A stretch of 64,000 nt of DNA from a virus (lineage: Duplodnaviria; Caudoviricetes). The position numbers and the translations under genes are program-made. Positions 42,199 to 48,017 of this stretch are shown in pieces. Numbering within the stretch: the first letter of the stretch is position 1; every line of letters begins with the position of its first letter. The stretch lies in the IMG/VR virus record IMGVR_UViG_3300047557_002741, positions 1 to 64,000 of that record; one strand, written 5' to 3'. The notes beneath the pieces were generated by a model. The model saw only the letters and a list, made by a program, of their open reading frames with translations. It was not told the origin of the DNA and did not search any database.

Positions 42199-42735
42199 TC
42201 AAAGAGATTGTTCAAGTCGTTTTAACCTTCTTCTCTCTTTCTGTTTTTTATTTATCTCGTCTCTATTTTGTTCTCTATATTTTTTTGCGTATTTTAATTT
42301 TTCTTCTCTGTTGTTCCAATAATTTTTTTTAGTAATTTCTCTATTTTTTTCTCTATTCTTTTTATTTCTTTCATTTGCAAGTTCTCTTTCTCTTTGCTTA
42401 TTTTTTCTTCTATACTCCTTTGCTTTATTTTTATATGACTCTTCACGTTCTTCTTTTGAATATTTTACTTTTCCTCCTCCCTCACCACCAGAAGTTAAAT
42501 TAATGAGCAATCCACCATCAATTTTTAATCCATAAAGGTGTATCATATATTTTTCGTGAATATACGCTCCATTTTCAGAATTAAATTTCTTTAAAATAAT
42601 AATTTGATTTTTATTTTTTGGTTTAAAATCTTGTCCGTTTTTTCTTTTGTGAGCAACATATGCTCTATTTTCTTGTCCTTTACCAATATAATAAGGAGTT
42701 TTATCTTCACGCAAATAAGCGTAAGTGTAGTACAT
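42199..42735 (-). CDS. Free-standing GIY-YIG-like (Seg-type) homing endonuclease
   Basis: YYTYAY...PYYIGKG...R...E...I...L.N.T.GGEG followed by a basic helical C-terminus; ATG 42735 follows a late promoter. Confidence 0.75.
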   Translation of the reverse strand: MYYTYAYLREDKTPYYIGKGQENRAYVAHKRKNGQDFKPKNKNQIIILKKFNSENGAYIHEKYMIHLYGLKIDGGLLINLTSGGEGGGKVKYSKEEREESYKNKAKEYRRKNKQRERELANERNKKNREKNREITKKNYWNNREEKLKYAKKYREQNRDEINKKQKERRRLKRLEQSL

Positions 42736-42761
42736 TTCTGATCTGTTGTGATTCGCAATAA

Positions 42762-42769
42762 TATTTATA
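42762..42769 (-). promoter_or_regulatory. Late promoter TATAAATA of the endonuclease
   Basis: Exact motif directly after the AGAAAGGGTGC-TCT-GCACCTTTTCT hairpin. Confidence 0.75.
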
Positions 42770-42830
42770 CAAGAAAAGGTGCAGAGCACCCTTTCTACCT
42801 GATAGATGCGAACCACACAGGCATTTTTAT

Positions 42831-45069: not shown

Positions 45070-45735
45070 TTATTTGACGAAATACATATGACGACGATAC
45101 TGTTCACCAGGGCAGTTTTCTAAATGTTCAACTTCTTCATCTGGAAGAAAATTAACACCACCAAGAAGTTTTGCTCCAATAAAAATATCAGCAGACTTTT
45201 CACACATCAGAGTAGCAGCAGCACAATCCTTTTGATAAGGTGATGCTGTAATAATACCATGATTCTCTAGAAGAATCAACTTAGGAAAGTATCCGTGTTG
45301 GTCTACAAACTCACCAACATACTTCTCCACATTTTGAAGTAAACGAGCACCAGGAGGAGCATAAGGGACAAGGCAGGACACTACACCGTTTCTTACAATC
45401 TGGTCTGGAAACCATCTCTGACAAGCAAAATCATTGACCGCAGGAGAGCAGAGTATCTGTGTAGTCTTTGGTGGATGAGTATGTGCGATATAATTGATTT
45501 CTGGGAAGTGCTTCATAATCCAAGCATGAAAAAGCACTTCAATACTTGGTTTCTTTTGATTTGGATTTAGTTGTTGAGCATCAGTATCCACCAGAACTAA
45601 ATCATCTTCCGATAGTGTATGAAGACTTGTGCCACTTGCTTTGATTAGAAAAGTATCTTCTGTTTGTCTCTCTGATACATTACCTTCACCACAGATAGTA
45701 TAGTCAGCAATCGTGTGTGCTAAGTCTAGAAGCAT
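45070..45735 (-). CDS. Class II aldolase/adducin-family protein
   Basis: GNVS.R...ASG...KPS.E..FH...HTH...L.NHG. Confidence 0.85.
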   Translation of the reverse strand: MLLDLAHTIADYTICGEGNVSERQTEDTFLIKASGTSLHTLSEDDLVLVDTDAQQLNPNQKKPSIEVLFHAWIMKHFPEINYIAHTHPPKTTQILCSPAVNDFACQRWFPDQIVRNGVVSCLVPYAPPGARLLQNVEKYVGEFVDQHGYFPKLILLENHGIITASPYQKDCAAATLMCEKSADIFIGAKLLGGVNFLPDEEVEHLENCPGEQYRRHMYFVK

Positions 45736-45893: not shown

Positions 45894-46268
45894 TTATTGG
45901 TGCTTTTGTAGATATTTAATCATTTCTTCTAGTACTGAAACATTATCTCCTACAAGTCCAAGAGCAGTGTTGCAGTTATTGCAAAGAATACCACGAACTT
46001 TATTTGAAGAATGGCAGTGGTCTATACACTTTTTATCCAAAACCTTATCACATATCTGACAGTTCTCATTTTTCATAAGTTCTGCGTACTGTTGTTCAGT
46101 TAGTTTGAACTTTCTACGCATAAATTCGTGCGGTTTATAATACTGTCTTCTATTTTTTGTCGCACACTTTTTACATCTTGGTTGCAATCCAACATTACCA
46201 GAACTAAAAGTTCTTTTGTGAAATGAACTATCTGGTAAAGAAATTTTACAATCATTGCAAGTTTTCAT
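45894..46268 (-). CDS. Endonuclease VII-family homing endonuclease (F-CphI-like)
   Basis: N-terminal CxxC...CxxC; CQIC...DHCH...VRGILC..CN..LG; directly downstream of psbA. Confidence 0.8.
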   Translation of the reverse strand: MKTCNDCKISLPDSSFHKRTFSSGNVGLQPRCKKCATKNRRQYYKPHEFMRRKFKLTEQQYAELMKNENCQICDKVLDKKCIDHCHSSNKVRGILCNNCNTALGLVGDNVSVLEEMIKYLQKHQ

Positions 46269-46293: not shown

Positions 46294-46301
46294 TATTTAT
46301 A
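46294..46301 (-). promoter_or_regulatory. Late promoter TATAAATA of the endonuclease
   Basis: Exact motif immediately after the psbA terminator. Confidence 0.75.
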
Positions 46302-46302
46302 C

Positions 46303-46328
46303 AAAAAAGGAACTCCGAAGAGTTCCTT
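46303..46328 (-). terminator. psbA intrinsic terminator
   Basis: AAGGAACTC-TTCG-GAGTTCCTT followed by a T-run. Confidence 0.85.
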
Positions 46329-46337
46329 AACATTATA

Positions 46338-47854
46338 TCACCCGATAGTTGGAGCAGTCAAGGCAACAGGCGTTGCTTCAACTGATGCAAGGTCTAGGGG
46401 GAAGTTGTGAGCATTCCTTTTGTTTTAACCTCTGTCGCCAGAGGGAGCGGACTATATCATCACTCATAAGAGTGTCGGACGCTAGTGGCGTATTACGGAT
46501 GAAGCGTCATCCACCGCCTAGTCTCTGAACCTTCCTTACACGCTTGCAAGGCTTGGCTGCTGATTGTCTACAAGAGAGTTCCAGCAATTCATCCGATTTA
46601 ACGAGCGCCATGCGTTCACAAAACGCTCGTGCATTACTTCAAAACCAAGATTTGCTCGGTTAAGAATGTCAGCCCAGGTATTAATCACACGACCATCAGA
46701 TGATAGAAGTGATTGATTAAAGTTAAAACCGTTACTCTGTTTCCTTAAATTTACCATCTTTAAGGAGAGGACTATATCTTCATCCCAGTAGGATGTTGGG
46801 CGCTAGTATCGTATTACATTCCACGCTTGGAAAACCGACTAGTCTCTGAACCTTTCCAAGAAGCGTCTTGGACTTGGCTGCTGATTACCCATTTATGGAG
46901 GGCTTCCAGCAATTCACCCAAAGTTTACCGTCAAATTGCTAAGACGGGACCCCGACGATTGAGGTTAAAAGCCATCGTGGAAACACCAAGAGCAGCAAAC
47001 CAGATTCCAACTACAGGCCAAGCAGCAAGGAAGAAGTGTAGCGAACGAGAGTTGTTGAACGTGGCGTATTGGAAGATCAGGCGACCGAAGTAACCGTGGG
47101 CAGCCAAGATGTTGTAGGTCTCTTCTTCTTGACCGAACTTGTATCCATAGTTCTGTGACTCGTTCTCAGTAGTTTCACGAACCAGTGAAGAAGTCACCAG
47201 TGAACCGTGCATAGCACTGAAAAGTGAACCACCGAACACACCAGCAACTCCAAGCATGTGGAAGGGGTGCATCAGGATATTGTGTTCTGCTTGGAAGACA
47301 AGCATGTAGTTGAACGTACCAGAGATACCCAGAGGCATCGCATCAGAGAAAGAACCTTGACCGAAAGGATAGACCAGGAACACTGCACTCGCAGCAGCAA
47401 CAGGTGCGCTATAAGCAACGCAGATCCAAGGACGCATACCAAGACGATAAGAAAGTTCCCACTCACGACCCATATAGGCGTAAATACCAATCAGAAAGTG
47501 GAACACAACAAGTTGGAATGGACCACCGTTATAGAGCCACTCATCAAGAGAAGCAGCTTCCCAGATAGGATAAAAGTGCAGTCCAATTGCGTTGGACGAA
47601 GGAATTACAGCACCAGAGATGATGTTGTTTCCGTACATGAGTGAACCAGATACAGGTTCACGGATACCATCAATGTCCACAGGAGGAGCACCGATGAATG
47701 CGATGATGAAACAAGTCGTAGCAGCAAGTAAGCAAGGAATCATGAGAACTCCGAACCAACCGACATAAAGACGGTTATCGGTTGAAGTTACCCACTGGCA
47801 GAATTGTTCCCAGAGGTTTTCGCCAGAACGGCGTGAAGCGATTGAAGCAGTCAT
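46338..47854 (-). CDS. psbA: Photosystem II D1 protein; exons 47854-46962, 46734-46623 and 46415-46338 (360 aa spliced)
   Basis: Joined exons (893+112+78 nt) restore [14 protein letters not shown] and [16 protein letters not shown] in frame. Confidence 0.97.
46416..46622 (-). mobile_element. Group I intron 2 in psbA (207 nt, after standard codon R334)
   Basis: Upstream exon ends in U, intron ends in G; P1 GAGCGU/GCGCUC; core AATTGCTGGAA, AATCAGCAGCC, GTTCAGAGACTAG, ATATAGTCC. Confidence 0.93.
46735..46961 (-). mobile_element. Group I intron 1 in psbA (227 nt, within standard codon L297)
   Basis: Upstream exon ends AACCU, intron ends in G; P1 ACCUC/GGGGU; same P/Q/R/S core elements as intron 2. 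Confidence 0.92.
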
Positions 47855-47970
47855 TTGTTTTAAAAGAGTAGTAAGACCATCAGGGAAATGGTGGAGTTAC
47901 TATTTCTCAGTACCCTTAACTGAGATATGAGAGACGTAATTTATACACCCATAGGTCTCGGTTAACGGGT
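47855..47970 (-). ncRNA. Structured psbA 5' leader resembling the PhotoRC-II RNA motif
   Basis: Stems GAGAC/GTCTC, TCTCAGT/ACTGAGA and ACCAT/ATGGT with potential AGGG/CCCT pairing, upstream of phage psbA. Confidence 0.6.
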
Positions 47971-48017
47971 GTTTAACAATGTTAAGATTTATGAGAAATC
48001 CGTAACATTTGTTTACC

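Follow-up and report, generated by a model that had tools for sequence, protein, structure and literature searches.

Linked Leu249 and Thr264 substitutions in the QB niche of a cyanomyovirus D1 protein

In plants, the S264T form of the D1 protein has a cross-resistance profile of triazines plus ureas. Ser-264-Thr is listed among the field-evolved psbA resistance mutations of weeds in the available text of PMC6843678 and PMC8621942, which give 218, 219, 251, 255, 264, 266 and 274 as resistance positions of D1 and agree with the first-pass annotation of the present locus in treating S264T as a plant resistance mutation. The O-gamma of Ser264 makes a hydrogen bond with QB and, in a proposed further role, hands on the first proton from His252, according to the accessible parts of PMC4030317 and PMC9709244; the bond itself, which the annotation had stated, is borne out by that part of PMC4030317. 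Val249, three residues before His252, is counted among the niche residues in a docking model (PMC6999049, available portion), and in the portions of the literature covered this docking list was all that was found for the position, with no resistance mutation at D1 Val249. The phage D1 described here shares residue, substitution and protein with the weed allele listed in the same parts of PMC6843678 and PMC8621942. Unlike the plant allele, its Thr264 is phage-borne, is always paired with Val249Leu, at a site that is not on the resistance list, and is known from environmental sequence alone.

A Great Barrier Reef study sought changes at Val219 and Ser264 in cyanobacterial scaffolds and found none, and it suggested PEST-region variants of phage psbA as a possible influence on the herbicide tolerance of marine phototrophs (PMC4793316, accessible text). 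No S264 or V249 variant of a cyanophage D1 was found reported in the portions of the literature covered. Natural D1 isoforms of cyanobacteria, such as the E130 and Q130 forms and PsbA1/2/3 of Thermosynechococcus, are described in the available part of PMC9709244 as variants that change the QB environment and tune the QB site, affecting the Ser264-QB distance and inhibitor binding; the differences given there spare Ser264. In contrast, the allele described here alters the QB-bonding residue itself.

Studies of 2005 and 2006 are said to have found cyanophage psbA to be mosaic, with intragenic recombination and GC patches. The present gene is similar in its short tract of deviant GC3 and in the switching of its best neighbour along its length, and differs from the mosaic genes described in that the exchanged tract bears two non-synonymous changes in the inhibitor niche. 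It also resembles psbA of S-PM2, which has a group I intron at Arg334|Asn335, the same site as our intron 2, and which encodes A286 as our D1 does. However, S-PM2 has Val249/Ser264 and one intron, whereas the present gene has Leu249/Thr264 and another intron inside the Leu297 codon. The collaborative homing of S-PM2, in which an intron works with the free-standing F-CphI (PMC6083498, available portion), finds the same layout here, as far as it can be read from the sequence.

Organization of the psbA locus

The window, by which we mean the whole stretch of 64,000 nucleotides analysed, comes from a 118-kb IMG/VR virus record (IMGVR_UViG_3300047557_002741) that is 57% complete by CheckV and carries psbA on its minus strand. 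T4-like cyanomyovirus genes are found in the window, including those for tail fibre, baseplate and a 2OG-Fe(II) oxygenase, together with cyanophage PHROGs. Exon 1 of psbA (46962..47854, minus strand), identified by the open reading frame with its translation and by Pfam, runs from D1 residue 1 through the first two bases of the Leu297 codon and encodes the whole QB niche. It is followed on the same strand by group I intron 1 of 227 nt (46735..46961; Rfam RF00028, 84.3 bits), which lies inside the Leu297 codon (CT|T), by exon 2 of 112 nt (46623..46734), by group I intron 2 of 207 nt (46416..46622; RF00028, 82.3 bits) between the Arg334 and Asn335 codons, and by exon 3 with the stop codon, 78 nt in length (46338..46415). 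The last two exons were defined by sequence and splice placement, and the splice junctions were inferred from the sequence, with every 5' exon ending in T and every intron in G. The 307-aa ORF of the program list is exon 1 running on into intron 1, and the splitting of the gene goes unmentioned in the annotation. When exons 1 and 2 are joined, the frame gives the canonical ...MAFNLNGFNFNQ..., and the spliced coding sequence of 893 + 112 + 78 nt makes up 1083 nt, that is 360 aa plus stop. A contig of public run X1 (Logan) has a joint of exactly 46415 to 46962, which fits the placed exon ends. The psbA leader contains a PhotoRC-II RNA motif (47892..47984, minus strand; Rfam RF01717, 84.1 bits).

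The window D1 matches the Pfam family PF00124 Photo_RC at 1.1e-86 with 290.7 bits (curated cut-off 27), and its spliced form agrees at 333 of 360 residues with the D1 of locus L136, whose gene is uninterrupted. All the redox and Mn ligand residues that we take to make up the cofactor list of D1 (Y161, D170, E189, H190, H198, H215, H272, H332, E333, H337, D342 and A344) are intact in the spliced translation. Interrupted psbA genes were also seen elsewhere, in 14 of 204 loci by a crude split-HSP screen: L221 and L223 have the same two intron sites as the window, and L107 combines a 3' intron with an insert of ~910 nt close to residue 78.

Directly downstream of psbA lies a free-standing, F-CphI-like ORF of the Endonuclease VII type (45894..46268, minus strand; phrog_2633, 2.7e-33; Pfam PF02945, 3.1e-17), with 33% identity to F-CphI of S-PM2 (E 5e-20). 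The Arg334|Asn335 intron and this putative endonuclease gene adjoining psbA make up a candidate homing unit of the S-PM2 type. A second putative homing-endonuclease-like ORF (42199-42816, minus strand; phrog_10829, phrog_15526, phrog_314) is located ~3.5 kb from psbA, and a related ORF stands immediately after psbA in the metagenome contig L134 (1892-2554). Between the endonuclease gene and the 2OG-Fe(II) oxygenase gene sits a conserved phage ORF of 221 aa with no assigned function (45070-45735, minus strand; phrog_13212, 2.4e-58). No psbD was found in the 118-kb source record at its 57% completeness, where the single match was a cross-match of psbA; in L134 and L136, psbD is 0.25-1.3 kb from psbA.

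Leu249 and Thr264 and their occurrence

Codon 249 of psbA is TTG (47105..47107, minus strand), encoding Leu in place of the canonical Val, and codon 264 is ACG (47060..47062, minus strand), encoding Thr in place of the canonical Ser. Both were read directly from the sequence, and the ORF list together with the minus-strand sequence confirmed the first-pass annotation in this respect. Standard D1 numbering equals local numbering minus 1, with Y161, D170, H190, H198, H215 and H272 at local 162, 171, 191, 199, 216 and 273. The window D1 thus departs from the canonical QB niche of Ser264 and Val249, with its family membership unaffected, and is substituted at a listed resistance position (Ser264Thr). 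The two changes are a coding difference in a conserved gene and not a chance motif; they are the sole conserved positions that separate the window from the consensus of 200 viral psbA loci. In addition, the window D1 has A286 (WFAALG), A171 (SFSDAMP) and E130 (GREWEL). The annotation was right about T286A, G171A, E130 and the numbering offset, but the three residues, to which it gave weight, are ordinary in the clade, A286 being present in 53/199, A171 in 120/186 and E130 in 157/181 viral psbA loci. Identity with the low-oxygen D1' isoform, whose signature is G80A, F158L and T286A, was ruled out, because G80 and F158 are kept and A286 alone of the signature is present.

Residue 264 is Ser in all 200 IMG/VR psbA loci, of which 120 were retrieved through a Ser264 pattern and are uninformative at 264 and the other 80 are the nearest relatives of the window, chosen regardless of residue 264. 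These 80 relatives (90-98% aa identity) have Ser264 in 80/80, Val249 in 78/80 and Cys249 in 2/80. Residue 249 is Val in 193 of the 197 loci that cover it and Cys in the remaining 4, a rare substitution in viral psbA; Cys at D1-264 was seen in one database D1 (P0064) as another rare niche variant. The pattern IFQYATFNN has no match in IMG/VR, its Ser version at least 120. The looser FQYATFN pattern gave six matches there, none of them psbA, and neither YNI[L/F]AAHGY nor an S264A/G pattern gave any. Among GenBank phages, a 42-aa piece searched by tblastn returned 512 records with a best identity of 95.2%, the two mismatches being Val and Ser, and neither change was present; the 80-nt tract reached a best identity of 93.8% among 472 records. 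A 5.8-billion-protein database, which consists of cluster representatives and was read for the best 120 matches per search, contained the allele in 0/120 of the best matches listed for the whole exon 1 and in 0/120 of those listed among short proteins; with residues 238-279 alone, none exceeded 95% identity and the allele occurred in 0/233 returned proteins. FQYATFNN in one genome per species from 185,579 species gave seven matches and no psbA. Carriers of only one of the changes were found neither in the IMG/VR pattern scans nor among the returned database proteins. The count of T264/L249 among viral and host psbA that the annotation had proposed finds the pair near-absent in viral loci and in no psbA of the 185,579-species collection, with the reservation that the scans may have omitted records very close to the window.

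Three further carriers were obtained from a metagenome scan, which gave 10 pattern matches in a collection without a denominator, three of them psbA (L131, L134 and L136). Leu249 accompanies Thr264 in all three, and their exon 1 nucleotide identities to the window are 0.79, 0.87 and 0.88. Codons 249/264 are TTG/ACG in the window, CTG/ACC in L131 and TTG/ACC in L134 and L136. The contigs are of phage origin, with PhoH, ThyX, exonuclease and phrog_461 nearby, and a PhotoRC-II motif lies 5' of psbA in L134 and L136. The psbA of L136 is without intron, and that of L134 is interrupted once, by a group I intron within the Met331 codon, which is a third insertion site. Three of the four carriers come from one assembly project, which differs from the assembly of the window. 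Sequencing error, which the annotation had named as fatal to its claim, is excluded, because the same residue pair occurs in three divergent contigs of another assembly with other codons. Both residues persist at nucleotide divergences of 12-21% and through synonymous changes of their codons, and to judge from this pattern they are maintained in the carriers. The strict linkage of the two changes, their extreme rarity and, by sequence comparison, their location on a short recombinant tract go beyond the annotation.

At 47107 the comparison with public data used short Logan contigs from four runs, each of a different study; the runs carry the labels freshwater, marine and marine sediment. The annotation had advised confirmation with reads, and here no support was obtained: all contigs over 47107 show the Val letter, at depths of 13/13 in X1, 3529/3529 in X4 and 141.4/141.4 in X7, and X2 has zero depth there. 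These contigs probably represent the tract in its common Val/Ser form; they are no support for the allele and are not its refutation. The intron and exon 2-3 pieces (46300-46941) show 0 differences in the contigs of the four runs. As these pieces are unchanged in the four runs, either the lineage that bears the introns or the introns themselves are widespread.

A GC3-rich mosaic tract in four psbA genes

The four Leu249/Thr264 genes have in common a GC3-rich mosaic tract at codons 243-265 (47057..47125, minus strand). Over codons 243-263 without codon 249, the four genes are identical at all 60 nt, and each finds its closest sequences among the other three. Within this group, identity reaches its maximum of 0.97 in the tract, against 0.83 when the four are compared with others. 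All four carriers have a tract GC3 of 0.76, compared with 0.42 +/- 0.12 in 144 other genes, only one of which is as high; in the rest of the window psbA, GC3 is 0.43. The best neighbour of the window changes along the gene from L146 to L060/L148, L136, L223 and finally L134/L136. In the triplet of the window, L223 and L134, informative sites split 16:5 over codons 160-240, 0:12 over codons 241-266 and 6:1 over codons 267-296 (Fisher p = 2.3e-5, with boundaries picked post hoc).

A 42-nt core between codons 249 and 264 is found in 15 IMG/VR contigs, all of which (15/15) have Val249 and Ser264, encoded by GTG or GTA and by TCC or AGC, respectively. A canonical parent haplotype of the tract thus exists, one base change off at each codon; it is a minority haplotype, and the four variant alleles are all located on it. 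Because the core is also present in these Val/Ser contigs, tract identity alone is no proof of common descent of the four alleles. A careful maximum-likelihood tree of 148 exon 1 sequences, from which codons 249 and 264 had been removed, separates the four carriers so that four changes are needed, at least two of them forced by the starred branches, and a single clade of the four appears in 0 of 200 bootstrap trees. The AU test puts such a clade 69.5 lnL units lower and does not reject it (p = 0.127). Given this p value, spread by recombination is unproven against vertical descent of the allele in a heavily reshuffled gene, which the test leaves standing; repeated origin of the allele on the same haplotype is possible. 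We read the sequence pattern as one origin that would have been followed by short-tract transfer into different backgrounds. Homing co-conversion was ruled out as the cause of the tract, since the tract adjoins neither intron site and the intervening sequence varies from carrier to carrier.

Explanations for the allele and its meaning

We propose that the Leu249/Thr264 allele of cyanomyovirus psbA arose once, was spread by recombination, is under selection and reshapes the QB niche, a reading that we hold to be evenly poised between right and wrong. The allele itself is a real and rare variant of a known protein, has an unusual population-genetic signature and is probably selected. Most likely, the pair has a single origin on a GC3-rich haplotype that is still in circulation in its canonical Val/Ser form. 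A tract of ~65 nt would then have been moved by intragenic recombination into phage psbA genes that are divergent elsewhere, with both residues kept by selection. As for function, whose consequences we infer throughout, D1 function can be retained because Thr retains the hydroxyl; in the proposed mechanism this hydroxyl would still bond QB and relay the first proton from His252, leaving the phage D1 functional. The extra methyl of Thr264 and the bulkier Leu249, one helical turn before His252, would reshape the niche, and Leu249 may be a compensating partner of Thr264. Inhibitors that orient on Ser264 (triazines, ureas and natural compounds with this mode of binding) would be expected to bind less strongly, and/or the exchange of QB with plastoquinone to change, and PSII centres that take up the phage D1 during infection could keep electron flow while the D1 of the host is blocked or in short supply. 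The suggestion of the annotation that the viral D1 may resist herbicides or allelochemicals, or pass electrons from QA to QB differently, is an extrapolation from plants. Tolerance of inhibitors or a change in QB kinetics may reasonably be expected from the pair, as Ser-264-Thr is a listed weed resistance mutation; Ser to Thr is a conservative change, with an effect documented for plant D1 only. A single-sequence AlphaFold2 model of the L136 D1 had a pLDDT of 35.9, too low for the 249-264 distance.

An unlikely alternative holds that the pair is a neutral or slightly deleterious hitch-hiker, two tolerated accidents on one haplotype that were copied by the frequent recombination of psbA and unseen by selection. 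Both replacements are conservative, psbA is mosaic, and a common Val/Ser form of the carrier tract exists; the small number of carriers, four only, would equally fit a mildly deleterious, short-lived allele. However, Ser264 in 200/200 and Val or Cys249 in 197/197 viral loci, together with all the database matches seen, argue that the sites do not drift freely, and the hitch-hiker reading also has against it the persistence of both residues through 12-21% divergence with synonymous codon changes and the lack of single-change intermediates in the IMG/VR patterns and database proteins. Doubtful in our judgement is also a tuning of the QB site for infection unrelated to inhibitors, in which altered QB affinity, redox potential or plastoquinone exchange would affect charge recombination and photodamage; a parallel to cyanobacterial D1 isoform switching, suited to the short, high-demand use of PSII by the phage, is drawn just as tentatively. 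The window D1 is of the E130 type, the surroundings of QB vary among natural isoforms, which affects the Ser264-QB distance and inhibitor binding (PMC9709244, available part), and Thr has the hydroxyl needed for function, given the role of Ser264 (PMC4030317, available part), but the absence of the allele from 512 GenBank phage records and 200 IMG/VR loci argues against a general benefit in infection.

Decidedly unlikely, in our estimate, is a small, recombination-mobile resistance cassette in psbA (Leu249 + Thr264) that PSII inhibitors of natural waters would select, be it run-off of herbicides and antifouling agents or QB-site toxins made by microbes. It would give infected cells tolerant photosynthesis and provide a reservoir of target-site resistance that hosts could take up. 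Marine Synechococcus genes have high GC3, and the contrast of 0.76 in the tract with 0.43 in the remaining gene would suit a tract copied from an unsampled Synechococcus with its own Leu249/Thr264 D1. Such a host origin is nevertheless very improbable: none of the seven FQYATFNN matches in the 185,579-species genome collection is psbA, the allele is absent among the protein-database matches listed, and the Val/Ser form of the tract itself resides in phage contigs. Finally, psbA is a classic site of chimeric assembly and the public-run contigs read only Val at 47107, but an error of sequencing or assembly, or chimerism of the contig, is scarcely credible when the same two changes recur in three contigs of another assembly, with three distinct codon combinations across the carriers, and the reading frame and all ligands are intact.

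Ser264 is the textbook residue of QB and herbicide binding in D1 and is invariant in every other viral psbA examined. A natural phage allele that alters it, always along with a second niche residue, offers an experiment on the extent to which the QB site tolerates change with PSII still working. Should the allele reduce the binding of inhibitors, this would be the first virus-borne PSII inhibitor tolerance of the target-site type. The allele would also make testable the idea, put forward in the accessible text of PMC4793316, that phage psbA variants affect the herbicide tolerance of marine phototrophs.
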